A DNA stretch of 64,000 nt from Lachnospiraceae bacterium UBA1729 (GCA_002315945.1 DCIJ01000078.1:1884-65883); one strand, 5' to 3'; counted from the stretch's first letter, positions 8,315 to 32,975 are shown. The notes: a model not told the origin generated them from the letters alone. Numbers and translations: made by a program.

Positions 8315-9244
8315 TTATTCATATAAGTCGCCTGACAGATAATGATCACCATTATCAGCAAAGATAACTACAATATTTTTTCCTTTGTTCTCTACTCTCT
8401 TTGCCACCTGGGTAGCTGCATGTAGTGCTGCTCCGGCTGAAATACCAATGGAAAAGCCTTCAATCTTTGGAAGTTCTCTTGCAGCTTTGTAAGCCTGCTC
8501 ATCTGTCACATCAATGACCTCATTAAAGAGACTTACATCTGTAACTGGAGGAATTGCGCCTCCACCGATACCCTGAATCTTATGAGGTCCCGGCTCTCCA
8601 CCATTTAGTACTGCACTTCCGGTTGGCTCAACTGCAATTATCTGAACATCTGGATTCTTTTCACGCAGGAATTTTCCAACACCACTTATGGTTCCGCCTG
8701 TACCTGCTGCTGCCACAAAAATATCAACCTTACCATCCGTATCCTCCCATATTTCAGGACCTGTTGTCTTGTAGTGTGCACCAGGATTATTTGGATTGCC
8801 TCCCTGACCTATGACAACCGAATTCTCAGTCTGCTCTAAAAGCTCCTGTGCCTTGGCACCTGCACCTGCCATATTCAGCTCACCTGGAGTTAAGTAAAGT
8901 TCTGCGCCAAAGGATTTTAGAAGAGTTCTTCTTTCTATTGATACATTATCAGGCATAGCTATTTTTACCTTGTATCCAAGGGCTGCACCAATGGCTGCCA
9001 AACCTATTCCTGTGTTTCCACTTGTTCCTTCTATAATAGTGCCGCCCGGCTTGAGTTCGCCGCTTTCTTCTTTTGCACGGATTATGTTGTAAGCGATTCT
9101 ATCCTTTACGCTTCCGTTAGGATTGAAGTATTCAAGCTTTGCTAATAATTTTGCTTCCAGCTGTTCTTTTTTTTCATAATTTGTAAGTTCCACCAAAGGT
9201 GTCTTTCCTATTAACTCCAAAATACTCTGATAAATCTTTGCCAT
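8315..9244 (-). CDS. cysK: Cysteine synthase A (O-acetylserine sulfhydrylase)
   Basis: 309 aa. PLP lysine in NPNGSVKDR, GTSGNTGIGLA and the GTGGTISG loop. Confidence 0.92.
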   Translation of the reverse strand: MAKIYQSILELIGKTPLVELTNYEKKEQLEAKLLAKLEYFNPNGSVKDRIAYNIIRAKEESGELKPGGTIIEGTSGNTGIGLAAIGAALGYKVKIAMPDNVSIERRTLLKSFGAELYLTPGELNMAGAGAKAQELLEQTENSVVIGQGGNPNNPGAHYKTTGPEIWEDTDGKVDIFVAAAGTGGTISGVGKFLREKNPDVQIIAVEPTGSAVLNGGEPGPHKIQGIGGGAIPPVTDVSLFNEVIDVTDEQAYKAARELPKIEGFSIGISAGAALHAATQVAKRVENKGKNIVVIFADNGDHYLSGDLYE

Positions 9245-9362
9245 AATTTTTTCCTCCCTCTGTTAACATGATATTAATCTGCGTCTTTTTAACGCCTACC
9301 TTAGTAATAGGTTTTGTCTGTAAATGTATCTTATCATTACCATTCACGTTTGAATAATACGC
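9245..9362 (-). promoter_or_regulatory. Promoter and leader module (copy 2), near-duplicate of 5451-5536
   Basis: On the minus strand: GTATTATTCAAAC..ATGATAAGATACA (TAAGAT at 9328-9333)..AAAACCTATtactAAGGTAGG, then RBS GAGGGAGG. Confidence 0.6.
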
Positions 9363-9404
9363 AAAAAATAAGACTGGCTATAAATACAGCTTATACCCAG
9401 TCTT
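9363..9404 (-). terminator. Rho-independent terminator after the patB-like gene
   Basis: Minus-strand hairpin AAGACTGGGTATAAG..TTATAGCCAGTCTT followed by a T-run. The 3' arm (TTTATAGCCAGTC) resembles the terminator at 5537-5581. Confidence 0.75.
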
Positions 9405-9437
9405 TTGATATTTTTCTTCATTTACCATGAAACTATA

Positions 9438-10646
9438 TTAAATTGTCGTTTTTTCCTCAAAAGCATCCCTGATTCTATCCAGTGCCTCTGTAAGAACTGC
9501 CCTTGGGCAGGCTACATTAATCCGTTGGAATCCTTTTCCCACATCTCCAAAAATTGATCCACTGTCAAGCCACAGTCCAGCCTTGTGAATTATGAGATCA
9601 TCTATCTGTCTGTCACTGAGTCCATATTTACCAAAATCAAGCCATATCATGTAGGTTCCCTCAGGCTTTTTAAATACAACCTTTGGAAGATGTGTCTTTA
9701 TATATTCTTCAGCAAAATCAATATTTGCTTTAATATACCTGCTTACAGCTTCATACCATTCCTGTCCATGATCATATGCCGCCTGACTGGCAATGATGCC
9801 GGCAGCATTCAGCTGGCTGTAGCCAGAGGCATTATATGCTTTTCTGAACTTAGTATATATTTCCCTGTTAGGAATAAAAATGTTAGAAACCTGCAGCCCT
9901 GCAATATTAAAAGTCTTGCTGGGAGAGGTCGCTGTAATTGAAATTTTAGCATATGCCTCATCAAGCTTGGCAAACACCTGGTGATTGCCAGACCAGACAA
10001 AATCTGCGTGTATCTCATCGGAAAATACTATAACACCATGCTTAACACAGATATCCCCTATTTTTATTAATTCTTCTTTTGTCCATACTCTTCCAACAGG
10101 GTTATGAGGATTACACAAAAGAAAGAGTTTAACTTTGTTTTCAACTATTTTTCTTTCAAAATCTTCAAAATCAATTGTGTAATATCCGTTTCCATCATTT
10201 ACCAGATCACTGCTGATAAGTGTTCTTTCATTATCATTGATAACTTCGCTGAAAGGATAATATACCGGCTGCTGGATAAGTATTGCATCACCCTTCTTTG
10301 TAACTGCCCTCACAGCAGTTGCAATGGCAAATACCACTCCCGGAGTCTTGTGAAACCAGCTCTTGTGCACATCCCACCCATAATGATTATTTATCCATCT
10401 GTGAACACTCTCAAAATAATCGTCATCCACTTCTGTATATCCATAGATAGCATGTTGCGCCTGCTTAACAAGGGCATCTTCTATATATGAGGACGTCTTA
10501 AAGTCCATGTCGGCAACCCACAACGGAAGCACTCCCTCCGGGAGTCCCCTCTTTTTTGCAAAATCATATTTGAGGCATTTAGTGCCTTTTCTATCAATTA
10601 AGCTGTCAAAATTCAGATTTCTTTCTGCCATATTACTCACCAACAC
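9438..10646 (-). CDS. patB: MalY/PatB-family PLP-dependent C-S lyase (cystathionine beta-lyase type, aminotransferase class I/II)
   Basis: 402 aa. Starts with NFDSLIDRKGTKCLKYD, and SPSKTFNIAG contains the PLP lysine. Confidence 0.8.
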   Translation of the reverse strand: MLVSNMAERNLNFDSLIDRKGTKCLKYDFAKKRGLPEGVLPLWVADMDFKTSSYIEDALVKQAQHAIYGYTEVDDDYFESVHRWINNHYGWDVHKSWFHKTPGVVFAIATAVRAVTKKGDAILIQQPVYYPFSEVINDNERTLISSDLVNDGNGYYTIDFEDFERKIVENKVKLFLLCNPHNPVGRVWTKEELIKIGDICVKHGVIVFSDEIHADFVWSGNHQVFAKLDEAYAKISITATSPSKTFNIAGLQVSNIFIPNREIYTKFRKAYNASGYSQLNAAGIIASQAAYDHGQEWYEAVSRYIKANIDFAEEYIKTHLPKVVFKKPEGTYMIWLDFGKYGLSDRQIDDLIIHKAGLWLDSGSIFGDVGKGFQRINVACPRAVLTEALDRIRDAFEEKTTI

Positions 10647-10658
10647 TTCTTTTTTATT

Positions 10659-11828
10659 CTATCCATTAAAGGCCTGGTCTAAATCGCTAATCAGGTCATC
10701 AATATTTTCTATTCCAACTGACATCCTCAGTGTTCTCTCTGTCAGACCACTTTTTTCAAGCTGCTCCTTTGGTACATCTGCATGGGTCTGTGTAATGGGA
10801 TATGTTAGCAGGGACTCAGTTCCTCCAAGACTTTCAGCATATTGGACCAGTCTGATTTTTTCTAATATTCTCCTGACACTTTCCACACTGTCTACATCAA
10901 ATGCCAGCATTGCACCGGCACCCCTTGCCTGTTTTTTATTAAGCTCATATCCGGGATGTTCCTGAAGCCCCGGATAGATAACCCTTTTAACAATTTTCTG
11001 ATTTTTTAACCAGTTTGCAAGCTTCAAAGCATTCTCCTGCGCCCTGTCCAGTCTTACAGCCAGTGTCTGAATGCCTCTGATTACGAGCCAGCTGTCAAAG
11101 GGAGACAGATTTGCACCTACAGTTTTATAAGCAAACCTGAGTTTTTCTGAAATAGCTTCATCCCTCACAATTGTGAATCCGGATAAGGTATCATTGTGTC
11201 CTGAAAGATATTTTGTTCCACTGTGAATAACAATATCTGCCCCTAAATCCAGAGGATTCTGAAGATATGGAGACATAAATGTATTGTCCACTATGAGAAT
11301 AGCATTATTCTCGTGGGCTATTTTTGCTGTTTTTTCAATATCCGTGATATTCATTAGTGGATTCGTGGGAGTCTCGATAAAGAGTGCTTTTGTATTGCTC
11401 TTAATATATTTCGTAACATCCTCTTTACTGAAATCAATATAGCTGAATTCAATTCCGTTCTTTTCACTTATAGTTCTAAAAAGTCGTGTTGTTCCACCAT
11501 AGATATCCACATCAACAATTAAATGGTCCCCTGAATTAAACAGTTCCATTGTATTGGAAATTGCAGCCATTCCGCAGGAAAACGCGATTGCGTCTGTTCC
11601 ATGCTCAAGAGATGCTACTATTTTTTCCAATTGCTCCCGTGTAGGATTCTGAACCCTGGTATAGTCATAACCTGTACTCTGTCCCAGACCAGGATGCGCA
11701 AATGTAGCTGTCTGATAGATTGGCACGCTGATTGCCCCAAATCGCGCCTCCTTATTATCACGCTCCAAATGTATACATCGACTTTCTATTGCTAACGATT
11801 TACTCATATTTGTCTCCCCTTTTTCCAC
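10659..11828 (-). CDS. Cys/Met-metabolism PLP-dependent enzyme (cystathionine gamma-synthase / gamma-lyase / methionine gamma-lyase family)
   Basis: 389 aa. NPTREQLE, SGTKYLSGHND and SLGGTESL. Second member of this family in the cluster. Confidence 0.85.
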   Translation of the reverse strand: MEKGETNMSKSLAIESRCIHLERDNKEARFGAISVPIYQTATFAHPGLGQSTGYDYTRVQNPTREQLEKIVASLEHGTDAIAFSCGMAAISNTMELFNSGDHLIVDVDIYGGTTRLFRTISEKNGIEFSYIDFSKEDVTKYIKSNTKALFIETPTNPLMNITDIEKTAKIAHENNAILIVDNTFMSPYLQNPLDLGADIVIHSGTKYLSGHNDTLSGFTIVRDEAISEKLRFAYKTVGANLSPFDSWLVIRGIQTLAVRLDRAQENALKLANWLKNQKIVKRVIYPGLQEHPGYELNKKQARGAGAMLAFDVDSVESVRRILEKIRLVQYAESLGGTESLLTYPITQTHADVPKEQLEKSGLTERTLRMSVGIENIDDLISDLDQAFNG

Positions 11829-11937: not shown

Positions 11938-12005
11938 TGAACCCGGGGGACGGGGTTGGGGGGTCAAAAAAGTGAACCCGGGGGACGGGGTTCTAGGTTC
12001 ATTTT
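11938..12005. repeat. REP-like repeat family 1, two units in opposite orientation to 1-64
   Basis: TGAACCCGGGGGACGGGGTT at 11938-11957 and 11973-11993. Positions 11973-12005 are the exact reverse complement of 25-57 (33 nt). Confidence 0.9.
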
Positions 12006-12850
12006 GCTGAAAAAGATAATATGGTATACACAGTTGCGTCCCCGATGGCATTACCATAAGGATTCTCTAATTTACAGTATCCACCGCTTCTTTCTAAATC
12101 AAAGGATGGGGTGCAGTATACAACTTCAGCCATCACTGATTTGAAATTAATTTCATGTGTTACACGATCAACCTCAACTCTTAAATCAACACGCCTGTCT
12201 GCAATCTGCCCGCAATCATTTACGTTAGCCAGCAGGTTATGAAATACTGGGAAATCTCCCCGTAAAGTGTAAACATACACATCCAATGTATTATATGGAT
12301 TATTCCAGATATAAAGTGTCGCATCATCAAAATTAGTAGGCATCCCATTTGAAGCCAGTGTTCCAAGCAAGACCTCATAAGAATTTTGACATTTTCTTAC
12401 ATCTAATCCATAGGTTTTGTTGTAATCAATCGCTGTGCCCCCGGCATTGCTATATCCAGAAGGATATCTAATTGCACTTGCACTTTTACCTGCTGTAATA
12501 TTTGAAACAATTCTTTCAACAAAGTTCTCTGTATCGAGACCTGACCATCTGTTTGTCGTAAACTGCTCCACTTTAAATGTCTTTTTTTCTTTATATTTGT
12601 TCATAGCGACCGCTAAAATCGGATTTGTAAAATCATGAAATGAATATGGATCGTACATATTAATTGCAGTGGCATGTGCCAGTTCATCTTGAGAATTTTG
12701 TCCTAATTGTCCTACAGTTTCCGCTGCAAAAACCGTAATGGGTGCAAACAGAATCATATGCATGAAAGCTACTGCCACAACAAACCTCAACGTAGTAAAG
12801 ACTACGGTCCTTTTATTTTTTACCTGTCTTCCAATAATTGTGTATGCCAT
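11999..12850 (-). CDS. Hypothetical secreted or membrane-anchored protein
   Basis: 283-aa ORF with an N-terminal hydrophobic segment (VVAVAFMHMILFAPITVFAAE). I recognise no family. It is flanked on both sides by family-1 repeats, and its stop codon lies inside one. Confidence 0.55.
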   Translation of the reverse strand: MAYTIIGRQVKNKRTVVFTTLRFVVAVAFMHMILFAPITVFAAETVGQLGQNSQDELAHATAINMYDPYSFHDFTNPILAVAMNKYKEKKTFKVEQFTTNRWSGLDTENFVERIVSNITAGKSASAIRYPSGYSNAGGTAIDYNKTYGLDVRKCQNSYEVLLGTLASNGMPTNFDDATLYIWNNPYNTLDVYVYTLRGDFPVFHNLLANVNDCGQIADRRVDLRVEVDRVTHEINFKSVMAEVVYCTPSFDLERSGGYCKLENPYGNAIGDATVYTILSFSAK

Positions 12851-12965: not shown

Positions 12966-13040
12966 TGACCCCAGGGGACGGGGTTCTAGGGTCAAAAAAG
13001 TGAACCACTAACCCCGTCCCCCTGGTTCACCCTGGTTCAC
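12966..13040. repeat. REP-like repeat family 1, inverted pair plus 10-nt tandem tail
   Basis: CCAGGGGACGGGGTT (12970-12984) pairs with AACCCCGTCCCCCTGG (13010-13025). CCCTGGTTCA is then repeated twice. Confidence 0.85.
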
Positions 13041-14816
13041 ATATATGGTGTATTGCTCATCGGTGACTTCATATAATGGGAGGAATATAGTTTCCCTATT
13101 GCCAGAGTATGCTCTGTAGCTTGACTGCTTCCATGGATAGGCCTCATAGGTATGCTCTACAAATGGGGTTAAGGCTTCATCAATTGACCTTCCTTCCAAA
13201 GAGAACTCTTTTCCTTCTTCTCCAACGGCCGCCAATGCGATTGGTCCGTCCAAAATTGCACATATACCCTTATTATCAGAAAGCGACTTGGTGGACAGGC
13301 TTGCCACAAAGCCGACAGCCAGATCTTTGTTCTCGAATTTTTCCTTTATCACGTAATAATCTGAGCTTACAGTATGCAGCACACCATCAATTAGTATTTT
13401 TCCATCTGACCAGGAAGGTATTCTGATTTGTAAGGTAATCTCTTCCTCGGAATTTACTTTTATTAAAAAATTCCATCTGGACTTAGCCCTGTGCCCATTT
13501 TCTTCTCCAAACAGTGCCCCCGAACAGTAGTCCATATTTACCTCAGTAGAGACTGACACCTTTTTCCCATTCATTTCAAAGGCAGCTGATGAGTTAATAA
13601 ACTGATCAATTGACACCAGTTTTTTTTCTTCATCCTTATAATATATCAGTGATGGATAAATAGTCTGGGCCTGGACCATGGTACCATAGCAGCACCAGAA
13701 GGATCTTGTTCTGGTTCCCCATACCTTTCTGCTTCCAGGTCTCATTGGGAGAAAATATGTGGGCATTCCGGTAAATTTATTCTGCTGAACAAGGAAAGCA
13801 TTATACAGCGTTCTTTCTATATAATCACTGTATTCCCGTTCGCCTGTAAAACGATACAGATACTCTGCCAGTCTGACCATGTTGTACATAGTACAAAACT
13901 CCTGAGTTCTGTCGCTCATGGACTGATAGAACTGATGGGGTGGAATCCAGAATTCTCCGGCATTTTGTCCACCAGTCGCATAGGCTTCTCTATCATATAC
14001 AGCCTGCTTCCAGAATTCTTTTGTGATTTCCAACCATCTAGTATCGTTAGTCACTTCATACATGCAGGCTGCCCCATGGGCTTCAGGAATTGATGCATTT
14101 GTATGATTATCAGTCAGGGCATCTTCCCCCTTTTCAAGAAGAGCAAAATCCTTGTATATGCTATAGGCGTTAGCCAGCTTCAGATATTTCGCATCCTTTG
14201 TAAGCCCGTACAATCTTGCCCAGATTTCCAGCATTCCTCCTGCTTCACCCTTGACAACAACCCCTGGCTTGTCAGCAAGACTGTCAACCCAGTCAATATA
14301 CCAGTCAGCCGCATTATTTAAAATCTCCAGCGCCACTTCATAGCCTGTCCACTCATAGGTATCCAGCAGCCCCATCAGCGTCTTGTGCAGGGTATACTGG
14401 GGCGACCAGATGTAATCACCGTTTTCAAGACGTCTGAAATATTTTTCTGGAATTGAACCAATCCATTTGCCACCATTATTTTCCTGACATATTTTTAACT
14501 CATCAACAATGGTAAAAAGCTTGGCCTCCAGCTCCCTATCTTTGTTAGAAGCAGACAGATGAGCAGCCGCTGACATCCAGTGCCCCAGAAAATGTCCCCT
14601 CAGCTGGCAGGTTGGAGATTCCCAGCCCCAATGGACATAGGCATCCTCCGGATCCCCGATAAACTGCAGATTTGGAAGCATAATGCCTGCCTCCAGATAG
14701 AAATTTTGCAAAAGGGCTCTGTTATCCAGTTCCATTAGATAGTCCCTGTTTATTGCTTCTCTTTCTTTGAACAAACCGTTGGTTAATCTTACTTCTGAAA
14801 TTTTTAGTGCCTCCAT
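13008..14816 (-). CDS. GH127-like (DUF1680) beta-L-arabinofuranosidase family glycoside hydrolase
   Basis: Starts with LFKEREAINRDYLMELDNRALLQNFYLEAG and carries the WCCYGT Cys pair. The start is set at the ATG ending at 14816, preceded by GAGGAGGAAAAAT. The last 10 codons (VNQGEPGGRG) are repeat-encoded. Confidence 0.75.
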   Translation of the reverse strand: MEALKISEVRLTNGLFKEREAINRDYLMELDNRALLQNFYLEAGIMLPNLQFIGDPEDAYVHWGWESPTCQLRGHFLGHWMSAAAHLSASNKDRELEAKLFTIVDELKICQENNGGKWIGSIPEKYFRRLENGDYIWSPQYTLHKTLMGLLDTYEWTGYEVALEILNNAADWYIDWVDSLADKPGVVVKGEAGGMLEIWARLYGLTKDAKYLKLANAYSIYKDFALLEKGEDALTDNHTNASIPEAHGAACMYEVTNDTRWLEITKEFWKQAVYDREAYATGGQNAGEFWIPPHQFYQSMSDRTQEFCTMYNMVRLAEYLYRFTGEREYSDYIERTLYNAFLVQQNKFTGMPTYFLPMRPGSRKVWGTRTRSFWCCYGTMVQAQTIYPSLIYYKDEEKKLVSIDQFINSSAAFEMNGKKVSVSTEVNMDYCSGALFGEENGHRAKSRWNFLIKVNSEEEITLQIRIPSWSDGKILIDGVLHTVSSDYYVIKEKFENKDLAVGFVASLSTKSLSDNKGICAILDGPIALAAVGEEGKEFSLEGRSIDEALTPFVEHTYEAYPWKQSSYRAYSGNRETIFLPLYEVTDEQYTIYVNQGEPGGRG

Positions 14817-15859: not shown

Positions 15860-15988
15860 ACCAGGGGGACGGGGTTCTAGGGTCATTTTTGTGAGCTAGG
15901 GGGACGGGGTTGGGGGTTCATTTTTTGAAAAATGAACCCCCAACCCCGTCCCCCTAGCTCACCCTAGCTCACCCTAGCTCACTTTTGC
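15857..15988. repeat. REP-like family 1 cluster with a 27-bp perfect palindrome; probable bidirectional terminator
   Basis: GGGGGACGGGGTTGGGGGTTCATTTTT / AAAAATGAACCCCCAACCCCGTCCCCC (15898-15955). One extra unit at 15857-15877 and a 3x tandem ACCCTAGCTC. It lies between convergent genes. Confidence 0.85.
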
Positions 15989-16918
15989 TTATTCCTCTTC
16001 CAGCATTTTTATTACTGCAGTGTTAGCATAGGTAATCGGTGCATTATGAATAAAGAAAATGGTTCCATTTAACGGAGAATAAAGCGTCTCCAGGATTGTT
16101 CCCTCATAGGGATTGATGATATGGGCCAGAGGTGTTCCGGCTTCAACCTTGTCCCCTGCCTTGACTAACGCATCAAAAAATCCAGATTTTTCCGTTTTCA
16201 CTGAAATAAATTCTGCGTCATCAATAATTCTGATCTTTTTAGCTCCAATGGCACTGTATTTTATTACTCCATTGTTGGCCAGGAAATTCATTACCGACAG
16301 TACCGCCTGTCCGGCACCGGTATTACTGATACGTTCAGTTGTATTTGTATACAGAGAAAAAGCAATTGTATCCCAAACCTGCCAGTTGTAGTTAAGGGTC
16401 GCTGTATCATATGGTCTTACATTTCTCTCAACAATGTATTTCAGGCCAAATTTTTTAGCCTCCTCCTGTGTGGAGAACCCTTCCTTCATGTATCTGACAT
16501 GGGGGACAAAATCACCTGGCATATAAAAGGAAGTAAACTGGATTCCATATTTGTAATCCTTGATTTCATTAAATACGCCATCCGCAATACGCTGTGTGGT
16601 TTCCCCCAGATTGTATCCTGGAAACATTCTGTTAATATCAGTATTGTCTGTAGACCAGAAACGTTTTTGAATATTAACTGAATATGGATTAATTGATGGA
16701 ATAATCAGAATTTTATTGCCTTCAATAATTCTGTTTTCTTCCTCAAGCTGCTTCATTTTTTTTATAAGCTGGGAGCAGCAGTAAATCTGCTGTATCTCAT
16801 TTCCTCTTGAATTTCCAACAATACAGACAGTTTTTTCACCCTCGCCAAATTCATATCCGGTCACTCTGAAATCATCCCGGTACATTCCCTTTATCTCAAA
16901 GAGGACTCTCTTATTCAT
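15989..16918 (-). CDS. Succinylglutamate desuccinylase/aspartoacylase (M14-like) family protein, apparently degenerate active site
   Basis: 309-aa paralog of 16911-17864. It has GNSRGNE where the paralog has GIHGDE. It overlaps the upstream gene by 8 nt. Confidence 0.65.
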   Translation of the reverse strand: MNKRVLFEIKGMYRDDFRVTGYEFGEGEKTVCIVGNSRGNEIQQIYCCSQLIKKMKQLEEENRIIEGNKILIIPSINPYSVNIQKRFWSTDNTDINRMFPGYNLGETTQRIADGVFNEIKDYKYGIQFTSFYMPGDFVPHVRYMKEGFSTQEEAKKFGLKYIVERNVRPYDTATLNYNWQVWDTIAFSLYTNTTERISNTGAGQAVLSVMNFLANNGVIKYSAIGAKKIRIIDDAEFISVKTEKSGFFDALVKAGDKVEAGTPLAHIINPYEGTILETLYSPLNGTIFFIHNAPITYANTAVIKMLEEE

Positions 16919-17864
16919 ACTTGCAGACCTCCTCTTTTAATATGCGTCCCATTAATGAGCCTTCATCAACTATAGGAAAATCTCTTATGGTAAATAACAT
17001 GCCAGCCTGTGGCGCCCTGACTTCATCAAGTACCGTTCCGCACAGAGGATCAACAATCTTTCCAATCAGTTCGCCCTCCTTGAGTCTGGCTCCATGACTA
17101 ACCTCTGGGACAAACAGACCACTGGCAGTAGCATTCAGATAACTTACATCATCACCGTCCTGGGATATCATTGGTTCCCTGACCACCACCGGGTCACCAC
17201 TCCATATCCCAAGCTCCCTCATCAGGTTAAATATGCCCTCCACCATCTGGTTTCCGTATGCTTTGGTAATTCTCATTCCAACACCCATCTCTACCACCAG
17301 AACAGGAGTCCCAATACTGTTTAAGCTGTGGGCAAATGTAGATTCCAAAACCGTGCTGGCACCATGAACCCAAATAAAATCAACATTGGCGCATTTTGCC
17401 AGGGGAACAAGAAAATCCTTATGGAGTTCATTTATTCTGATTTGAGGTATCTCAGTCAGATAAATATTGCTGGCATGAATATCTACAACACAATCAGAGC
17501 CAGCCACATCCTTAACAATTCCAGCAGCCAGATATTCTGTCATATTTCCTTCAATATCACCAGGGAATAGCCTGTTCATGTCCAGATCAAATGCCGGAAT
17601 TCCTCTTGTGATGGAATCAATTCCCAATGGATTCATAGCTGGATATATATCAACAATTCCTGTAAGCTTATCTTTTTCCATTGCAATACGTCTTTGAAGT
17701 TCATAACAGACGTACTGTCCCTCCAGCTCATCACCATGTATTCCTGTAACTATACTGATTCGTTTCAAATGAGCTTCTTTTTTTCCATCAGGAATAATTC
17801 GGTTCTTTTTTATCATAAGTTTCTCATCAATAGGCAATCCTACCGATGCAACAACTTCAACCAT
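16911..17864 (-). CDS. Succinylglutamate desuccinylase/aspartoacylase (M14-like, COG3608-type) deacylase
   Basis: 317 aa. VTGIHGDELEG and VVDIHAS are zinc-ligand style motifs. Confidence 0.7.
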   Translation of the reverse strand: MVEVVASVGLPIDEKLMIKKNRIIPDGKKEAHLKRISIVTGIHGDELEGQYVCYELQRRIAMEKDKLTGIVDIYPAMNPLGIDSITRGIPAFDLDMNRLFPGDIEGNMTEYLAAGIVKDVAGSDCVVDIHASNIYLTEIPQIRINELHKDFLVPLAKCANVDFIWVHGASTVLESTFAHSLNSIGTPVLVVEMGVGMRITKAYGNQMVEGIFNLMRELGIWSGDPVVVREPMISQDGDDVSYLNATASGLFVPEVSHGARLKEGELIGKIVDPLCGTVLDEVRAPQAGMLFTIRDFPIVDEGSLMGRILKEEVCKYE

Positions 17865-17874
17865 GCTGTTCTCC

Positions 17875-17904
17875 CAAAATGAGCCTGGTCATACGCAGGC
17901 TCAT
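17875..17904 (-). promoter_or_regulatory. Intra-operon stem-loop (partial terminator or stabiliser) between the transglutaminase and deacylase genes
   Basis: Minus-strand hairpin AATGAGCCTG-cgtatgac-CAGGCTCATT followed by TTGGGAGAA, which contains the next RBS. Confidence 0.5.
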
Positions 17905-17925
17905 TAATTTTTCATTATTTTAATT

Positions 17926-18720
17926 TTAATAGTATTTTTCTACAGACACCTGCACTGCCTGTGTCTGAATTCCGCCGCCCCACATGACGCCTCTGTTAAT
18001 TGCGCAGTCAACAGCATCCCTGCCGACTCCCAGCTTGATATATTCATCTGTGATTTCACAGTTATGTGTGGGATCAAATGCGATAAAAATGTCATTGCAG
18101 GCAGCCTCTACCCAGGAGTGACTTTTGCCCTCACCCACAATCAGTCCACAGGTATACCTTGCCGGTATCCCAAATATTCGTAGCAGACAGATAAAAATGT
18201 GGGAAAAATCCTGGCAGACACCTTTTCCTTCGGAAAAACTCTCTTCAGAAGTGGTCTCAACCTGTGTGCTTCCCTGCTCATAGATCATTTTTTCATGAAG
18301 CCTGTCCATGATACAGATACATTTTTCTCTGGTGCTGGCGCATCTGTCAATTTCAGCTCTTATTTCATTAGAAAAGCTGATAATATTATCTCCCGGGATA
18401 CATTTTCCATGGGGATATTTGTACATTCCCAAGGTGCTATTTTGTACTCCTCCAATGGTACACAGAGGACGCGTTTCCACCAGACCTTTGATTGTAAACA
18501 GATATTCAGAATGAGGTTCAATAATACGGCCAATAATCTGCTTATTTCCGAATGAATCCATCCCCTCTGAATAGGTTGCCTGGGGAGACATGTTAATGTC
18601 ATAGGAAATACTAATCTGTCTGAAATCATTAGCTGGAATCGGCTTCAGAGTAAAGTAACAGGTATCCACTTTTTCCGAATAGCTGATTTTCATCTTATAT
18701 TGATAGTTTAAAAAAGCCAT
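17926..18720 (-). CDS. Transglutaminase-like cysteine protease family protein
   Basis: 264 aa. GVCQDFSH (Cys), HSWVEA (His) and FDPTH (Asp) form the triad pattern. The N-terminal region resembles the bacterial transglutaminase N-domain. Confidence 0.8.
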   Translation of the reverse strand: MAFLNYQYKMKISYSEKVDTCYFTLKPIPANDFRQISISYDINMSPQATYSEGMDSFGNKQIIGRIIEPHSEYLFTIKGLVETRPLCTIGGVQNSTLGMYKYPHGKCIPGDNIISFSNEIRAEIDRCASTREKCICIMDRLHEKMIYEQGSTQVETTSEESFSEGKGVCQDFSHIFICLLRIFGIPARYTCGLIVGEGKSHSWVEAACNDIFIAFDPTHNCEITDEYIKLGVGRDAVDCAINRGVMWGGGIQTQAVQVSVEKYY

Positions 18721-18737
18721 ATTTTTCTATATTATCT

Positions 18738-19403
18738 CTAAGCGATAATTGCCTCCACACTATATATTACCTTTGAGTAATCAATATCAGCCTCATTTAT
18801 CAGAGTGCTTACCCTGCTTAAGGCTGCCTCATTGTATTTAATTCCGCTTCGTAATACTCTGGGGATCATTCGTTTTACTTCCCGCTCAATATCCTTGCGA
18901 TCAATTTTCAGTCTGGCATATAAATCGATTCGTTCAATACGCTTTCCGGCTTTTATAATATTTCTAATCTGCTCAGCATCTATCTGATCGTCAACACTGC
19001 CCCAGAATGACAGAATATCATCTGTAATCTGCTGCAGTTCAATAAGGGGCGAATCACTTCTGGCAGCATTGTTCATTGCATAAATAGCCATCTGAATATA
19101 TGAAAGGGCATCTGACCCTATTGTTTCCCTCAGCACAATAGCATTGTCATAGGCTCTGTTCAGGTTGCTGATGATGGAATCCATTATTGTTTCATCAAAA
19201 GGATATCTATTAAGAAAATCCTCCTGGGATTTGTATATGTCAGGAATATCCAGTGATTTACAGTAATTTGTATAAATATCACTGCTGTCATCAATCATGA
19301 TGTCATAGCTTTTTGCAAATAGTTTTAAGGTTGAATACACACGTTCCGTATACCGGCCAAGCCAATAGAGGTGATCAACCTGTTCTACTGAGATAATACC
19401 CAT
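18738..19403 (-). CDS. Alpha-E domain protein (COG2307-like), short form
   Basis: The N-terminal HLYWLGRYTERVYSTLKLF is the alpha-E signature. At 221 aa it is shorter than the roughly 300 aa I recall for this family. It overlaps the ATP-grasp gene by 19 nt. Confidence 0.7.
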   Translation of the reverse strand: MGIISVEQVDHLYWLGRYTERVYSTLKLFAKSYDIMIDDSSDIYTNYCKSLDIPDIYKSQEDFLNRYPFDETIMDSIISNLNRAYDNAIVLRETIGSDALSYIQMAIYAMNNAARSDSPLIELQQITDDILSFWGSVDDQIDAEQIRNIIKAGKRIERIDLYARLKIDRKDIEREVKRMIPRVLRSGIKYNEAALSRVSTLINEADIDYSKVIYSVEAIIA

Positions 19404-20710
19404 GTGTCTTTAAATCCTCCTCCCTGTGATGAATTAACAATATATGAATCCGGATTTCTGGAAAATCTTGTGAGTCCGCTTGCCCACACAAGCGGCTCCT
19501 CTGCCATAAGAACAAAGGCTCGCAAATCTGCTTTTCTTGGAACGACTTCACCCTCATCCACAATGTCCAAATCCTGAAAATCAATAACTTCCTGGGCAAT
19601 GAACCTCCTTGGTTCTGCTTTCAGTAGTTCAATAAAGTCCTCCTTCTGCTTGGCTGTCATGGTATTGCCAAAGACAACTCCATATCCTCCCGCTTCTGCC
19701 ACATCTTTTAAAACCAGATCATCAAAGTGCTTCAGCACATAATCCATGTCTTCCTCATAAAAAGGAAGATACGTGGGAGCATTTTTCAAAACAGGTTCCT
19801 CTTTCAGATAGTATTTAATCATTTTGGGAACGAAGTAATATATGCCTTTATCATCTGCAACTCCATTGCCTGGTGCATTAATTAAAGCCACATTACCTTT
19901 TCTAAATACATCATAGATATGCGGAATTCCGATGAGAGATTCCGGATTGAAATTCATTGGATCCAGGTATTCATCAGAGATACGTCTGTAAACCACTCCT
20001 ACCCTTTCTTTGACACCACTGGCACTTACATAGTACAAAATGTCATTTTCCACAAAGAGTTCTGACCCGGTTACAAGATGGGCCCTGGTCTGTTCGGCCA
20101 GGTAGGAATGTTCAAAATATGCCGCATTATATCTGCCCGGAGTCAGAATAACCGTATGGCCTCCTGGGTTTACATAATCCATTGTTTTTCTTAATAATTC
20201 AGCATAGTTCCTGTTATCAGCAAGTTTTACATTATGAAAGGTTTCCGGGGAGCTCTTTCTGCAAAGATCCCTTGCTATCATGGGATAGGATGCTCCCGAA
20301 GGAACACGCAGATTATCCTCTAAAATGTACCACTCATTATCTTTTCCCTTTACCAGGTCTATTCCCGAAATATGGGAATATATCCCCTTGGGAGGCATGA
20401 CCCCTTCACACTCAGCCATATAGCCTGATGATGCAAAAATAAAGTCTTCAGGTACGACACCATCCTTCACAATTTTTTTATCAGAATAGATATCTTTTAG
20501 AAAAAGATTAAGCGCTTTAACCCTTTGCTTAAGGCCTCTTTCCAGCATTTCAAATTCATCATGTTCAATGATTCTGGGAATTGCGTCGAATGGAAATAGC
20601 TGCTCTTTAAAAGTATTGTTTTTATAAATTCCAAACTTTACTCCATAACGGGCTAACAAACTATTAATCTTCTGGGTATGCACTACCAGTGCCTGCTCGT
20701 GTTTCTTCAT
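19385..20710 (-). CDS. Circularly permuted type-2 ATP-grasp protein (COG2308-like)
   Basis: 441 aa. FPFDAIPRIIEHDEFEMLERGLKQRVKALNLFLKDIY is typical of this family. RBS CTGGAGGA lies upstream. Confidence 0.8.
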   Translation of the reverse strand: MKKHEQALVVHTQKINSLLARYGVKFGIYKNNTFKEQLFPFDAIPRIIEHDEFEMLERGLKQRVKALNLFLKDIYSDKKIVKDGVVPEDFIFASSGYMAECEGVMPPKGIYSHISGIDLVKGKDNEWYILEDNLRVPSGASYPMIARDLCRKSSPETFHNVKLADNRNYAELLRKTMDYVNPGGHTVILTPGRYNAAYFEHSYLAEQTRAHLVTGSELFVENDILYYVSASGVKERVGVVYRRISDEYLDPMNFNPESLIGIPHIYDVFRKGNVALINAPGNGVADDKGIYYFVPKMIKYYLKEEPVLKNAPTYLPFYEEDMDYVLKHFDDLVLKDVAEAGGYGVVFGNTMTAKQKEDFIELLKAEPRRFIAQEVIDFQDLDIVDEGEVVPRKADLRAFVLMAEEPLVWASGLTRFSRNPDSYIVNSSQGGGFKDTWVLSQ

Positions 20711-20748
20711 TTTGTTGGTCCTCCAGCTTGGCGCATAGCCATATGGTA

Positions 20749-20788
20749 AAAAAAAGGGCGCTCATGTATTTCTACATAAGCGCCCTTG
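20749..20788 (-). terminator. Strong intrinsic terminator 40 nt upstream of the ATP-grasp start codon (candidate attenuator)
   Basis: Minus-strand hairpin GGGCGCTTATGTA-gaaa-TACATGAGCGCCC followed by T8. A candidate promoter (TTGACA-17-TGGTAATTT) lies upstream at about 20800-20836. Confidence 0.7.
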
Positions 20789-21040
20789 CTCTCATAATTT
20801 AAAAGTAAAATTACCATATGTGCATAATATTGTCAATATCTGTTAAATCTCCGGGCCTGTTATCCACTAGGCCTCCAGCTCTGCCATCCTGGAGAAAAAC
20901 AGCTTCAGTCTTTTACTCAGCATACTTGCCAATGCACATAATTACAAAAAACCACTGCAGCGTAAAATGCATGGTATACAGGGGAAGAGGAATATCAAAT
21001 TTTAAAACAAGGATACTTTTTGTTACTAATATGGCTAATC

Positions 21041-22638: not shown

Positions 22639-22712
22639 GGGTGAGCTAGGGGGACGAGGTTGGGGGTTCATTTTTGCAAAAAATGAACCCCCAACCCCGT
22701 CCCCCTAGCTCA
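22630..22712. repeat. REP-like family 1 palindrome; probable bidirectional terminator
   Basis: TGAGCTAGGGGGACGAGGTTGGGGGTTCA (22642-22670) pairs with TGAACCCCCAACCCCGTCCCCCTAGCTCA (22684-22712). It is nearly identical to 15892-15960 and lies between convergent genes. Confidence 0.85.
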
Positions 22713-23551: not shown

Positions 23552-24886
23552 TTACGATCTTTTCATTTTGGATATTCCACAAATAACCTGGAAAGTAGCC
23601 AAGTTAAATCCCATTTTAATTTTTTTAATTTTGCCTATTCCTTCTGACAACTCCAACGTCTGAAGCTCAGAACACTTTATTCCAGTCTCTTCAAAACACT
23701 GGCAGAGAGCCTGTGCATATTTTTCACCATCAAAGCATGTGGTCAGGGAAAAATAAAATCTGTCATTAATAGAATTAATTTCTAAAACAGGCGTTACACT
23801 ATCAACAAAGGAGTACAGCGACTTAATATGCCTGTCAATACTTCCATAGGACATCCTGCCTGCATAACTCACACTTGCAGTACAACGGGCACGCTCTACA
23901 CACTTTTTAGCCAAAATCCTTTTTGCATCCACAGAAGGCATATACGAAAATGCCTTGTCAAGCTTAAGCATACCCTTTAGCTTTGGAATCATTACGATAT
24001 CTGATGAATCAACAATAGTCTTTCCTCTGACACATGTATCTAACATCTCCGTATCCATTTCAAAAGATTTCTTTTCAAAACGGAAGGTACAGCTTTGCAG
24101 GAAGGGAGGATATGATCTGCTGACTCCCAAAATGTTTTTCCCATTTACAGCCACAGAAATATCAATCCCCTGGTTAACCGCCTCCGGATGCAGCTTATTG
24201 ACTGCTTTTGCCATAAGTATCTGTGCTATTGAATTTGGCGAACCATCGTTTAATCGGGCGAATTCCATTATTTGAGCCGAATCACATTCAAACATGTATA
24301 CTTTTCCCAGATAGCTTTTCTTTTCTGGAAAAAAGAAACACTCTCCACCCATTTCCGAATTGAGCTTCTTGCCTTCTTCTTCAACTGGAAAACGACTCTC
24401 AGGAAGAGTGGTTTCCTCCAGACTCATGTCTTCAAGAATCCATTCATAACTAGCGTTACACTTTATTTCTTCACCCTTTAATCGATAATACTCAAGTAGA
24501 ATACGGCCAACAAATGCCCCCATTCCGCTGCCGTCTGTCAGCCCATGAAAAAAATATGCTGTCAACTGATTATCACAGACACTAATTCGATATAAAAAAT
24601 CATCATTATCGCGCCCATTAATCACATAAGCTTTACTATCCTCATATATCCTTGGCTCTTTATCATGCTTGACCCAGACCAGGGATTTATCCTTCTCAAA
24701 CAACTTTACCTGAAAATATGGAAATCTTTTCGCACTGATTTTCAGAGCTTCATCCATCATTTTTACATCTATCTTTTCATCAAGAGTATATCTCATTGCT
24801 GCAAAAGTAGAATGCTTTCCATCCATGGCATATGCAAATAGTTTTGCTCCAACAGACATCTCAAACTCTGGTATTTTTTTTGTCAT
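23552..24886 (-). CDS. Stand-alone condensation-domain-like / HxxxD acyltransferase superfamily protein
   Basis: About 444 aa, which is C-domain size. FFHGLTDGSG matches the HHxxxDG catalytic motif. The ATG at 24886 lies 8 nt after GGGAGAAG. Confidence 0.6.
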   Translation of the reverse strand: MTKKIPEFEMSVGAKLFAYAMDGKHSTFAAMRYTLDEKIDVKMMDEALKISAKRFPYFQVKLFEKDKSLVWVKHDKEPRIYEDSKAYVINGRDNDDFLYRISVCDNQLTAYFFHGLTDGSGMGAFVGRILLEYYRLKGEEIKCNASYEWILEDMSLEETTLPESRFPVEEEGKKLNSEMGGECFFFPEKKSYLGKVYMFECDSAQIMEFARLNDGSPNSIAQILMAKAVNKLHPEAVNQGIDISVAVNGKNILGVSRSYPPFLQSCTFRFEKKSFEMDTEMLDTCVRGKTIVDSSDIVMIPKLKGMLKLDKAFSYMPSVDAKRILAKKCVERARCTASVSYAGRMSYGSIDRHIKSLYSFVDSVTPVLEINSINDRFYFSLTTCFDGEKYAQALCQCFEETGIKCSELQTLELSEGIGKIKKIKMGFNLATFQVICGISKMKRS

Positions 24887-24913
24887 TATATTAACTTCTC
24901 CCAAAACTTACTT

Positions 24914-29687: not shown

Positions 29688-32600
29688 CTATACCTGCTCA
29701 AAGGCCTCAAGACTGTCAAAGCCGTAGAGCATTGCCGTATTACTCATGGTTTCATGGGCTATATTAACGCCGCCCTGATAAGCCATGACCACGTATCTTC
29801 CATAGAGCTGTAGCATCTTGTCAGAATATGTACTGATTTCGCCTCTGAGATAGGTTTCATATGAGGTATCTATAATGCTGTCCTCATAGGTATGAAGTGT
29901 CCTTGCATTGCCTGCCACCTTGGGATGAATCTGGGCAAAAGTTTCCATCATTTCCATCTGAATGGCAACAATCTGCTCTATTACAGCCTTTTTCTCATCA
30001 GAAAGCTCGGGGAAATTCTCCTTTATCTCCAGCCATCTCTTACTGTCTGTACTTTCCATCATTCTGCCATATTTTTCAGTAATCAGGTTATGGCCTCTGC
30101 TATATTCCCTGGAAAAATCATAATAGTACTGAATCAGCATTGTACTGTCCCAGGTCAGATACTGGCTTTTTCTCATTACACTAAATGTGGGCCAGTCGTT
30201 CTGACAGTAGGCTCTTCCGCCCTCATTTTTCACCTTGTCAAAGGCTTCAAATTCAAGCTTTACAATCCGATCTACCAATTCCTTTCTGTCAAGTTCACAG
30301 ATTCCAGCCTTAAAAAGTATCTCCTCAGTGTGGTAATCCAGATAAGGCTCCACATCACTGATTATCTCCTCATCATACATTAATCTGGCCAGATATGCGG
30401 CCAGCTCCTCCACAGGTTCACTTACTTTTTTCTTGTCCACCGCTGTAAGAAAACTGTTTGATACTTTGTCGATACAGGTGATAAAAGTATCATCTCCAGG
30501 CTTGGAAGCATCCATGCACAGATTCTGGGCACTCTTATACAGCCATTTGTCATGAGGTGGATACTGGTTGCAGATATAGTGATAAAGCTTTAGAGCATTT
30601 TTTATTCCATCAGACAGCATAATGGATGCTGTAAGCTCATCCTCTCTGTCAAGCATTCGCAAATAATTGTACTGGGCTGTCTGGGCAAAGCCTGCTGCAG
30701 CCTCAGCCACTTTAAGTAATCGGATTCTTTCAGGGAAACCGGCCTTTAGCTGATTTCTGATTTTTGAAAAAATGCCAGCCTTGTCGGAAAATACCTCTCC
30801 ATTTACACTGGCAGCCAGTGAATAATACGGAATACTCTGGAAGTTAATATTCTTAACTCCAATATCATCAATAATATTATCTTCAATACTATTATCCACA
30901 ATTATTATTTCTTCCCCCAGAAACTTCTTATAAAAGTCAGAAATCCTGCTTACACCCCTCCTGCCCTGGGCAAAAGTAGTTGTATTTCTGGAAAAGCCTT
31001 CAAACTCATCAGGTAATTCTTCATATGCCGCCTGTAATGCTTCTCCAATTTCTTCATAGGTGGCATCATCCAGCCACATACAAAATTCAGGTCCCCAGTC
31101 GTGGTCCCTTGACAGTGCATCATCATAGCCAAAGCAGTCTGAGCCCTCGCCAACCAGTCCAACTGCGATTCTGTCCTCATATTCTGAAAACTTTTCATGT
31201 ATCATGGGTGCACCAAAGGCCTCATAGTAAGCCCTGGACAGCTCCATTCCATTTCTGTCATCTCCTGTCCTCTTTGATACACAGTTTGCAACACTCTCCA
31301 TAAGTCTCTCATACTGACTATTTTTTCCTATGGTAGAAGCAACTATCTGTGCCGCTTCACGATATATTCTCTCTGCCTTAGCATATTCCTTATTTTTAAA
31401 ATGGTATCCAGCCAACGCTGACAGTGCGGCACAATAGTGAGGATCCCTGAGGCCTCTGGCTTTAGACAGACGTATTGCTGTATAAGCATAATCCCTGGCT
31501 TCCTCATAATTTTTCCCCTGAAGACAGGTATTTGCCAGATTAGCATAGGTAACTGCTATCTCAAAGCCTGCCTTATTATATAGAGAAATCTCCAGAGCCT
31601 TTTTAAGGCTTTCACCAGCCGATTCAAAATCCCCCATCTCCTGGTACAGCAGGCTCATATTGTTGCACAGGCCTGCAACCAGCATGTCCATCCTGTCAAG
31701 CTGGCCCATTTCCATACATTTATCATATATAGTCTGAGTTTTATGATAGTAGTCCATGGCCATTTCCAGCTTTCCCATGGAACGGTAGGCATTGGCTATG
31801 TTCAGGTAGACTGTTGCCGCCTGCAGTGTATTCTCTGAACCAGCTGACTCCTCTGAAACCTTGATAGCTGCTATGGAAGCATCTATTATTTCCTGCAATT
31901 TATCCTTCTCAGAGGTCTGTCTGTAGTATCCTATCAGCTCGTTCAGCACAGTTAGTAACAACGCCTGATCCTGTTCCCGTCCCGCTACACTTCTCATATT
32001 AATCAGATAGCTTTCAGCGTCCTTTGGTTTGTTCTCATCAAACAGACTGTCCACAGTGTTAAGAACCTCCTGCTTTCTTCTCTCCTGGTAGGTCTCCCTT
32101 ATCCCCTGCCCAAGAGATGTATAATTTGCATTTAACTTTCCAGAATGAATGGTAACATACGTTTCGCTTTCATTCTGTGTCAATGGGAAGGGCAGTGGAA
32201 TCTGTCTTTCATTGATTTCAGCCACAGAAACCATGACTTTTTCAATATTCATTCCCATTCCGTATTCCAGAGCCTTATGGAAGTCCTGATAGCTGTAGCA
32301 TTTTTCTCCCACAATATTAAAGCAGGTGTTTTTGCATTTCGTTTCACCAATAATTCCTAATATAACTTTTGCCAGATCTTTTACATACACAGCCTGAAAA
32401 TGTCCATCCCCATCCTCAGGGATGATAATCTGGCCTGCCTTTTCGGCCCAGTTGAAAAAAATCTCCTCTCTGGCAGCATAATTTCCAGGTCCATAAATAA
32501 AAGCTGGTCTCACTGAATTGAACGCAATACCATATTCCTCAGCCACCCGGCACAATTCCTTCTCAAGCTTAACCTTTCCAAGGATATATTCTCCAGCCTG

Positions 32601-32975
32601 ACCACCAAAATCTCTGGTCTCCAGCTCACCCTCTTCGTCAACAGGCTTTCCTGTTCCCCTTTTATATACGTCACTGGTGCTCACAAAGATATACTGACTG
32701 GTTTTTCCATCTATGGCCCTGACTACCGACTCAATATCTCCCTCTGTATAGGCACAAAAGTCAACAACACAGTCAAAACCATCTGCTATGTATTCTGACA
32801 GCATGGCTTTGTCAATATCATGCCTGTCAGATACTATATGACTGATATGGGCAGGGTATGGAAAAGATACCTTCCTGCTCCCTCTATTGATAAGAACTAC
32901 CTCATTATCCCTGCAGACTTCATCTACAAATGCTTTTCCAAGAAAATATGTACCACCAATTACAAGAATTCTCAT
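29688..32975 (-). CDS. Multidomain protein: NAD-dependent epimerase/dehydratase (SDR), TPR repeats, NTase-like/DUF4037, DUF4125-like
   Basis: N-terminal MRILVIGGTYFLGKAF Rossmann motif. About 5 TPR-like repeats lie around residues 390-560. GLVGEGSDCFGYDDALSRDHDWGPEFCMWL is DUF4037-like. NEGGRAYCQNDWPTFSVMRKSQ is DUF4125-like. Confidence 0.65.
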   Translation of the reverse strand: MRILVIGGTYFLGKAFVDEVCRDNEVVLINRGSRKVSFPYPAHISHIVSDRHDIDKAMLSEYIADGFDCVVDFCAYTEGDIESVVRAIDGKTSQYIFVSTSDVYKRGTGKPVDEEGELETRDFGGQAGEYILGKVKLEKELCRVAEEYGIAFNSVRPAFIYGPGNYAAREEIFFNWAEKAGQIIIPEDGDGHFQAVYVKDLAKVILGIIGETKCKNTCFNIVGEKCYSYQDFHKALEYGMGMNIEKVMVSVAEINERQIPLPFPLTQNESETYVTIHSGKLNANYTSLGQGIRETYQERRKQEVLNTVDSLFDENKPKDAESYLINMRSVAGREQDQALLLTVLNELIGYYRQTSEKDKLQEIIDASIAAIKVSEESAGSENTLQAATVYLNIANAYRSMGKLEMAMDYYHKTQTIYDKCMEMGQLDRMDMLVAGLCNNMSLLYQEMGDFESAGESLKKALEISLYNKAGFEIAVTYANLANTCLQGKNYEEARDYAYTAIRLSKARGLRDPHYCAALSALAGYHFKNKEYAKAERIYREAAQIVASTIGKNSQYERLMESVANCVSKRTGDDRNGMELSRAYYEAFGAPMIHEKFSEYEDRIAVGLVGEGSDCFGYDDALSRDHDWGPEFCMWLDDATYEEIGEALQAAYEELPDEFEGFSRNTTTFAQGRRGVSRISDFYKKFLGEEIIIVDNSIEDNIIDDIGVKNINFQSIPYYSLAASVNGEVFSDKAGIFSKIRNQLKAGFPERIRLLKVAEAAAGFAQTAQYNYLRMLDREDELTASIMLSDGIKNALKLYHYICNQYPPHDKWLYKSAQNLCMDASKPGDDTFITCIDKVSNSFLTAVDKKKVSEPVEELAAYLARLMYDEEIISDVEPYLDYHTEEILFKAGICELDRKELVDRIVKLEFEAFDKVKNEGGRAYCQNDWPTFSVMRKSQYLTWDSTMLIQYYYDFSREYSRGHNLITEKYGRMMESTDSKRWLEIKENFPELSDEKKAVIEQIVAIQMEMMETFAQIHPKVAGNARTLHTYEDSIIDTSYETYLRGEISTYSDKMLQLYGRYVVMAYQGGVNIAHETMSNTAMLYGFDSLEAFEQV

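Follow-up and report, generated by a model that had tools for sequence, protein, structure and literature searches.

The canonical COG2308/COG2307/COG1305 triad, which encodes a circularly permuted ATP-grasp ligase, an alpha-E protein and a transglutaminase-fold protein, is often accompanied by the Anbu peptidase (PMC3235984; PMC5666114). Iyer et al. (2009), whose prediction is cited in PMC5666114, expected it to make peptides or to attach them as tags, and the searchable literature assigns it no established function (PMC3235984, PMC5666114), as a preliminary description of the locus reported here had stated. In Burkholderia the triad is NtrC/sigma-54-dependent under nitrogen limitation (PMC5491218), and in marine metagenomes it co-varies with urea-metabolism domains (PMC3597751). 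Here we describe a cassette of five genes in a 64,000-nucleotide (nt) stretch of DNA from Lachnospiraceae bacterium UBA1729 (GCA_002315945.1 DCIJ01000078.1:1884-65883; the whole stretch is called the window, and positions are counted from its first letter), in which a miniaturised triad is followed by a pair of genes, AstE1 and AstE2, of the AstE/AspA family.

The cassette has the same three domain families as the canonical triad in the same order, and its ligase is about 40-45% identical to proteobacterial members. It differs in size, the three proteins having 441, 221 and 264 amino acids (aa) compared with 483-488, 316-343 and 842-1114 aa in two plasmid examples, and in content, with the AstE pair added, which is absent from both plasmid examples, and no Anbu (N-terminal nucleophile hydrolase) peptidase gene within the cassette or next to it. 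Its hosts are gut anaerobes of the Firmicutes and a Treponema, whereas the canonical triad is known from Proteobacteria, Cyanobacteria and Actinobacteria.

A second system that invites comparison is that of cyanophycin, the polymer made by cyanophycin synthetase, whose breakdown is finished by the AstE-family hydrolase CphZ; the CphZ genes cluster with those of cyanophycin synthetase and cyanophycinase, and in CphZ the H-E-H triad binds zinc and a Glu is essential (PMC9974463). AstE1 shares both the triad and the Glu, and the two systems are alike in linking an ATP-dependent amide ligase to an AstE/AspA zinc hydrolase that undoes, or in the cassette is predicted to undo, an isopeptide-type bond. 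Unlike the CphA1/cyanophycinase/CphZ system, however, the cassette uses another ligase family, a transglutaminase-fold thiol enzyme instead of the serine cyanophycinase, and an active and a dead paralog where CphZ is a homodimer. AstE1 is moreover distant from CphZ, matching its structure 8ein at E = 0.006 only.

Several acyl-protection pathways end in deprotection by an enzyme of the AstE or carboxypeptidase type, namely the arginine succinyltransferase (AST) pathway (AstC, AstE), the ectoine pathway (DoeB) and the LysW/ArgW pathway (LysX, LysJ, LysK); the protecting amide of the LysW pathway is the work of an ATP-grasp ligase and is taken off by a metallohydrolase. AstE1 belongs to the same family as AstE and DoeB, and four related cassettes, no more, carry a transaminase of the ArgD/AstC/LysJ family (above the TIGR00707 cut-off). 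In contrast to these pathways, the cassette has neither an acyl-CoA transferase nor a LysW-like carrier, and AstE1 scores far under the equivalog cut-offs. Glutathionylspermidine synthetase/amidase joins an ATP-dependent carboxylate-amine ligase to a papain-like thiol amidase that cleaves the same bond, and a ligase is likewise paired with a thiol amidase (predicted) here; the cassette differs in that the two are separate proteins, the ATP-grasp is circularly permuted, and an alpha-E protein and the AstE pair are added. The active/dead AstE pair, the miniaturised triad, the recruited neighbours and the leader element described below were not found in the literature searched, which did not extend to the 2009 survey, a source that may mention AstE; the same searches found no relevant link between COG3608 and ATP-grasp genes and no recent functional work on the triad.

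Conservation of the five-gene unit

Open reading frame (ORF) calling on the window placed five minus-strand ORFs at 15989-20710, packed as one co-directional cluster. They encode the ligase (19385-20710), the alpha-E protein (18738-19403), the transglutaminase-fold protein (17926-18720), AstE1 (16911-17864) and AstE2 (15989-16918). The ligase and alpha-E genes share 19 nt (19385-19403) and the two AstE genes share 8 nt (16911-16918); the remaining gaps are 17 nt between the alpha-E and transglutaminase genes and 61 nt between the transglutaminase and AstE1 genes. This packing, with both overlaps, had been given in the preliminary description; the ORFs lie exactly where it placed them, and every motif quoted there is found in the translations. 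Other gene callers start the transglutaminase gene at 18693, giving 255 aa instead of 264. By their annotation, the close homologs come from metagenome-assembled genomes of Lachnospiraceae of the herbivore gut, and a Joint Genome Institute metagenome holds an identical copy of the locus; cluster look-ups for a cultured host returned metagenome-assembled genomes only.

Related loci were collected as the best-scoring matches to a query, 31 of them from a scan of species-representative genomes with AstE1 and a further 80 from a metagenome scan with a ligase alignment (69-90% identical). The sample is one clade; ligase relatives at about 45% to 69% identity, somewhere among which the AstE pair is lost, lie outside its range. 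Gene order was counted in 77 independent loci, each with at least 3.7 kb of sequence past the ligase gene. The order ligase, alpha-E, transglutaminase, AstE1, AstE2 is intact in 75 of these 77, in hosts of which most belong to the Lachnospiraceae or other Clostridia and one is a Treponema, while the genes flanking the cassette vary from locus to locus. One exception (L085) has a 2-hydroxyacid dehydrogenase gene after the alpha-E gene. In the other (L033, 11763-13100) AstE2 is reduced to about 32 codons, followed by two AbiEi/AbiEii-like toxin-antitoxin genes (recognised by eye without a profile test), apparently because a mobile element inserted itself there.

Identity to the window protein among the related loci is 70-92% (median 82%; 75 loci) for the ligase, 57-86% (68%) for AstE1, 44-86% (58%) for AstE2, 41-80% (58%) for the alpha-E protein and 29-68% (38%) for the transglutaminase-fold protein. 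In unsaturated pairwise comparisons all five genes are under purifying selection, with ratios of nonsynonymous to synonymous substitution (dN/dS) of 0.02-0.09. Because of the order kept in 75 of 77 loci and this selection, the AstE pair is regarded as part of the unit, and the co-conservation with the triad on which the preliminary description had staked its proposal holds in this clade. The pair is at the same time a clade-specific addition, since an AstE1 relative of 48% identity stands without the rest of the cassette in one locus (L031), and two proteobacterial plasmid triads, whose ligases are 42-45% identical, lack AstE genes.

The one structure that could divide the cluster lies in the 61-nt gap, where a hairpin folds at -15.3 kcal/mol; it had been placed at 17875-17904 and is indeed present, with actual coordinates 17878-17905. 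If it ended the triad transcript, the AstE genes would form a separate operon and their position would be a matter of chance, a reading that could also call on a weak promoter-like match at 17942-17914. However, the sense-strand 3' flank of the hairpin, UUUUGGGAG, is the AstE1 ribosome-binding site and offers only about four U; a consensus scan rated the hairpin terminator-like on the opposite strand only, and promoter-like matches in the region are no commoner than in shuffled sequence. The orthologous spacers, usually 1-60 nt long, are mostly without stable structure, so the hairpin was ruled out as a conserved internal terminator; it is local to this genome and marks no conserved operon boundary, contrary to the splitting that had been held up as a possible refutation. 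With the gene order kept across divergent hosts and unrelated flanks, the arrangement is not due to chance: chance adjacency is effectively excluded, and the five genes are one operon.

Pfam profiles place the first three products in the families of the triad, as had been read from their motifs, and in no others. The ligase matches PF14403 (CP_ATPgrasp_2) at 6.6e-136 over profile positions 1-373 of 374 and PF04174 at 1e-124, and aligns over its full length with PDB 3n6x (8.3e-116), a structural-genomics entry titled 'putative glutathionylspermidine synthase'; its dN/dS is about 0.03. The transglutaminase-fold protein matches Transglut_core (PF01841, 4.1e-16), Bact_transglu_N (PF08379, 6.5e-9) and PDB 3isr (3.9e-14), and its catalytic motifs GVCQD, H-W-E and DPT, with the Cys, His and Asp, are retained in 95 of 95 orthologs. 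Catalytic motifs are intact in the ligase and the thiol enzyme, as they are in AstE1.

The alpha-E protein exceeds the PF04168 cut-off (4.6e-20), matching positions 6-164 only of the 294 in the profile, and its WLGRY-ER motif is retained in 100 orthologs. Its shortness, already remarked on, is a property of a subfamily: the 120 closest homologs all have 218-224 aa, and most full-length proteins among the best 150 of 432 matches (E <= 1e-3 among 1.84 billion representative proteins) have about 200-240 aa, compared with 316 and 343 aa for the canonical alpha-E proteins on the proteobacterial plasmids. The AF2 model is an all-helical bundle (pLDDT 86.6), for which Foldseek against the PDB gave generic helical matches only (best E = 0.33) and a PDB sequence search no credible match.

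Of the 'two deacylases' that the preliminary description had seen downstream of the triad, one stands and the other does not. AstE1 (317 aa) matches AstE_AspA_cat (PF24827) at 2.1e-23 and keeps the His-Glu-His zinc triad and the catalytic Glu, with HGDE in 92 of 93 orthologs, DIHAS in 93 of 93 and the Glu of VEMG in 92 of 93. It aligns with solved family members, the nearest being 3cdx, 3na6, 2qj8 and DoeB (6twm), and is predicted to be a catalytically competent zinc deacylase. AstE2 (309 aa) matches the same profile only partially (1.5e-10, residues 29-120). Its first His is replaced by Arg (RGNE, 87/88 orthologs), its second His by Gln (87/88) and its catalytic Glu by Tyr (88/88), so that two of the three zinc ligands and the Glu are gone, whereas the NRMFPG loop is retained in 87 of 88. 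Its dN/dS of 0.022-0.043 indicates selection at least as strong as on AstE1, and its AF2 model superposes on AstE-family structures (TM about 0.7), the CphZ structures being among the fold matches. Among NCBIfam models both proteins are nearest to DoeB and far under every equivalog cut-off: AstE1 scores 60.5 bits for DoeB (cut-off 402.7) and 16.9 for aspartoacylase (cut-off 180), and AstE2 35.6 for DoeB (402.7) and 16.4 for the succinylglutamate desuccinylase subfamily (170).

Because Arg, Gln and Tyr occupy the zinc and catalytic positions in about 88 orthologs, AstE2 is, as judged from its residues, a family member by descent and a conserved, non-catalytic pseudoenzyme. It is probably a partner or ligand-binding subunit of AstE1, a role that fits their 8-nt overlap, which is conserved in many Lachnospiraceae loci. 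Several orthologs (P0410, P0423, P0448 and P0490) are publicly named 'M14 family metallopeptidase' despite the lost zinc ligands, which is probably an over-annotation.

A proposed amide cycle and its alternatives

Genes of several kinds have joined the cassette in related loci. The commonest sixth gene, found in 26 loci up- or downstream and always on the cassette strand, encodes an ArAE_1/FUSC_2 membrane domain fused to a Cof-type HAD hydrolase (for example L018:12506-13789, L001:11879-13171 and L040:1966-3138). On the same strand there are also an SBP_bac_3 polar amino-acid ATP-binding cassette importer with a Cytidylate_kin2-family protein (about 14 loci), a PuuD-like peptidase C26 (8 loci; nearest NCBIfam model gamma-glutamyl-GABA hydrolase), a PPDK_N-domain protein (8 loci), NADP-isocitrate dehydrogenase (9 loci) and citrate synthase (5 loci). 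An acetylornithine/succinylornithine (ArgD/AstC)-family transaminase occurs together with an iron-containing alcohol dehydrogenase (Fe-ADH) in the four loci mentioned above. In four loci (L007:4514-7141, L011:5766-7151, L015:186-2828 and L057:1893-4436) a citrate synthase gene, an isocitrate dehydrogenase gene or both separate the alpha-E gene from the transglutaminase gene, whereas in others (L018-L022, L026 and L034) they lie downstream of AstE2; because there are two different arrangements, these genes are considered functionally recruited and not an inherited neighbourhood.

Taken together, the recruited genes point to 2-oxoglutarate supply, transamination of N-acylated intermediates and hydrolysis of gamma-glutamyl amides, that is, to small-molecule nitrogen and glutamate-family metabolism and away from defence. 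A role as a defence system was rejected, none of the five proteins matching a PADLOC model (E <= 0.01). In two loci (L019:4569-4925 and L020:1190-1260) decayed GNAT and peptidase C26 sequences separate the leader from the ligase gene, which suggests a recent loss of accessory genes in some rumen lineages.

We propose that the cassette carries out a cytoplasmic cycle in which an amide on a small molecule of acidic-amino-acid type, or on a short isopeptide, of glutamate-family metabolism is made, used and unmade, and we put the probability of this reading at roughly 0.5. The ligase, with its short alpha-E partner, to which it would be translationally coupled through the 19-nt overlap, may activate a carboxylate as an acyl-phosphate and join it to an amine. 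The transglutaminase-fold Cys-His-Asp enzyme would then cleave or transfer that amide via a thioester intermediate, and AstE1 would free the terminal amino acid from an N-acyl or isopeptidyl compound, as AstE, DoeB and CphZ do. AstE1 would probably form a heteromer with the dead AstE2, the 8-nt overlap coupling their translation and AstE2 retaining the NRMFPG loop that binds carboxylate. Judging by the genes that related genomes have repeatedly added to the cassette, the amide would most likely serve glutamate-family metabolism, as a transient protecting group or handle or as a minor store of nitrogen. The accessory genes and the precedent of cyanophycin and CphZ strengthen the earlier idea that an amide of gamma-glutamyl or aspartyl type is made and broken in a cycle, which is plausible.

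Several considerations weigh against this proposal. No substrate, product or activity is reported for any member of the triad in the literature searched. The accessory genes are absent from the window and from most loci, and for that reason they are hints to the chemistry and not part of the core; a search of the 64 kb for ArAE-HAD, citrate synthase, isocitrate dehydrogenase, GNAT, Fe-ADH and class-III transaminase genes found none. Set beside hydrolases that cleave what it makes, the ligase would drive a futile cycle in the absence of regulation or of intermediate steps, and the five genes encode no such steps between ligation and hydrolysis. The AstE1-AstE2 heteromer and the ligase-alpha-E complex are suggested by overlapping frames and co-conservation only. 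Finally, the related loci, being the best matches to the queries, represent one clade.

The same enzymes could instead act on a protein, the ATP-grasp ligase adding amino acids such as Glu at the C-terminus or on a side chain and the AstE1/AstE2 pair, with the transglutaminase-fold protein as a peptidase, trimming them. Such make-and-break pairs of ATP-grasp and M14 enzymes exist for ribosomal protein S6 (RimK) and for tubulin (TTLL/CCP); the AstE fold lies within the carboxypeptidase A superfamily, and a non-catalytic AstE2 could serve in target recognition. The 2009 prediction for the triad was likewise of peptide synthesis or tagging (Iyer et al. 2009, via PMC5666114). However, neither within the cassette nor next to it is there a conserved candidate gene for a tag or target, its recruited neighbours encode metabolic enzymes and an amino-acid importer, and the nearest characterised relatives of AstE1, DoeB and CphZ, act on small molecules, so we consider protein tagging improbable.

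A cyanophycin-like reserve, in which the ligase would polymerise amino acids via side-chain carboxylates to an oligo- or poly-isopeptide rich in nitrogen, the thiol enzyme depolymerise the product and AstE1 split the isodipeptides, as CphZ does beta-Asp-Arg, would draw on the AstE-family membership of CphZ and its clustering with polymer genes (PMC9974463), its place among the fold matches of AstE2, its weak sequence match to AstE1, the nitrogen control of the canonical triad (PMC5491218) and the linkage of the cassette to genes for 2-oxoglutarate and glutamate supply. AstE1 is nonetheless closer to the DoeB-like group than to CphZ, cyanophycin synthetase and cyanophycinase genes are found in none of the locus maps, and polymerase activity and primer dependence are without support. 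Cyanophycin synthetase uses a second, Mur-type ligase module, which the cassette does not have. The ArgD-type transaminase, Fe-ADH and C26 neighbours would also better suit transformation of a protected monomer, and a storage polymer seems to us about as improbable as a protein tag.

A more specific form of the small-molecule cycle, which we put forward tentatively and think doubtful, is that the cassette is a minimal, undescribed cytoplasmic amide cycle of gut anaerobes, bringing together a new glutamate-family conjugate or short isopeptide (for example a gamma-glutamyl or dicarboxyl-acyl amine) made by the ligase with alpha-E, a thiol amidase, an active/dead deacylase pair and a new terminator switch.

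Leader element and other features of the window

Upstream of the ligase gene, on the minus strand, lies a putative sigma-70-type promoter at 20808-20836, with TTGACA at 20836-20831, a 17-nt spacer and the extended -10 element TGgTAATTT at 20816-20808. It was missed by a simple consensus scan because the -10 hexamer is weak; the arrangement TTGACAA-N-TATGGTAtTTT aligns upstream of the operon in many orthologous loci with unrelated upstream genes. The promoter is followed by a terminator-like leader hairpin at 20742-20790 (minus strand), consisting of GAGCAAGGGCGCTTATGTA-loop-TACATGAGCGCCC with a 15-bp stem and then T8, about 30 nt 5' of the ribosome-binding site. The 95-nt leader containing it (20711-20805) folds at -35.5 kcal/mol (z = -5.7). 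The ligase ribosome-binding site itself, GGAGG at 20720-20724 on the minus strand, lies in a segment, AAGGAGGA, that is conserved in orthologs.

The leader motif, RRCAAAGGCG-stem-loop-stem-CGCCTTTTT, was found in 50 distinct instances, one or two copies per leader. The hairpins begin about 3-35 nt past the promoter and share an invariant base, a variable, co-varying upper stem and a U-run, after which comes the ribosome-binding site. By a strict pattern scan the motif occurs once in the window and, in related loci, almost only on the operon strand, and it precedes whichever gene leads the operon, be it a transporter, ArAE, GNAT or C26 gene; instances include L001:6920-7050, L007:2350-2445 and 14277-14330, L019:4524-4561 and L045:4018-4062. 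It stands before the first operon gene in dozens of species, and in L007 it is also found 5' of a GDSL hydrolase gene. The pairing statistics are partly circular because the scan itself demanded pairing, yet stem positions outside those it required are also 89-96% paired, with several pair types. Searches of the window and nine related loci against Rfam 15 gave no match at the gathering threshold, the leader yielding sub-threshold terminator-like matches only. The leader is too short for a conventional aptamer, and a leader peptide was rejected, the ATG within the ATGAGAGCAAAGG motif not being conserved. A promoter-proximal terminator hairpin appears to gate expression of the operon.

At the other end of the operon, directly 3' of the AstE2 stop codon, there is a perfect 35-nt inverted repeat at 15891-15962, whose arms (15891-15925 and 15928-15962) are 100% complementary and fold at -81.8 kcal/mol, flanked by three 10-nt tandem units. 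It probably terminates transcription in both directions between the AstE2 and AraC genes, which converge on it. The AraC gene was rejected as a regulator of the cassette; its partner is the adjacent GH127 gene, and its position beside the cassette is not conserved. A dispersed intergenic repeat resembling repetitive extragenic palindromes, with the core GGGGGACGGGGTT, of which the inverted repeat behind AstE2 is one copy, is present in 11 copies in the window (0.5 expected), usually as inverted pairs, for instance at 3-50, 11945-11992, 12973-13022, 15864-15962 and 22649-22705.

Elsewhere in the window, Pfam identifies a PALP enzyme, a class I/II aminotransferase and a Cys/Met pyridoxal phosphate-dependent enzyme at 8315-11828 (minus strand). 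Sulfur amino-acid genes also lie a few kb from the cassette at L001:4346-5284 and L002:10008-12239, the latter pair being O-acetylhomoserine sulfhydrylase and cysteine synthase as recognised by eye from N-terminal sequence only; they may be leftover synteny or a functional link. A 1095-aa protein of unusual architecture is encoded at 29688-32975 (minus strand), combining an NAD-dependent epimerase, TPR repeats, DUF4037 and DUF4125, and two minus-strand ORFs, of 450 aa (23552-24904) and 283 aa (11999-12850), have no Pfam match at E <= 1e-5.

Meaning for the triad family

The triad itself is already known but uncharacterised, and the AstE-bearing cassette is a variant of it. Reports of a substrate or product were not found for the triad, which is spread over many bacterial phyla and linked to the proteasome relative Anbu. 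The variant is useful in being made up of five small soluble proteins and in being abundant in Lachnospiraceae of the herbivore gut and rumen. It also brings an enzyme predicted to cleave the product, whose characterised family members have N-acyl amino acids and isodipeptides as substrates, and the range of chemistry is limited by its recruited neighbours to glutamate-family amino acids and amines. Because the cassette is compact and abundant, has a predicted cleaving enzyme and comes with informative neighbours, what the triad does can be tested directly by reconstitution and metabolomics. The pairing of an active with a dead AstE protein is in addition a clear case of a conserved pseudoenzyme labelled 'M14 family metallopeptidase'. 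If the minimal amide cycle tentatively put forward above exists, working out so compact a system would lay open the chemistry of the COG2308/COG2307/COG1305 triad as a whole, Anbu operons included.

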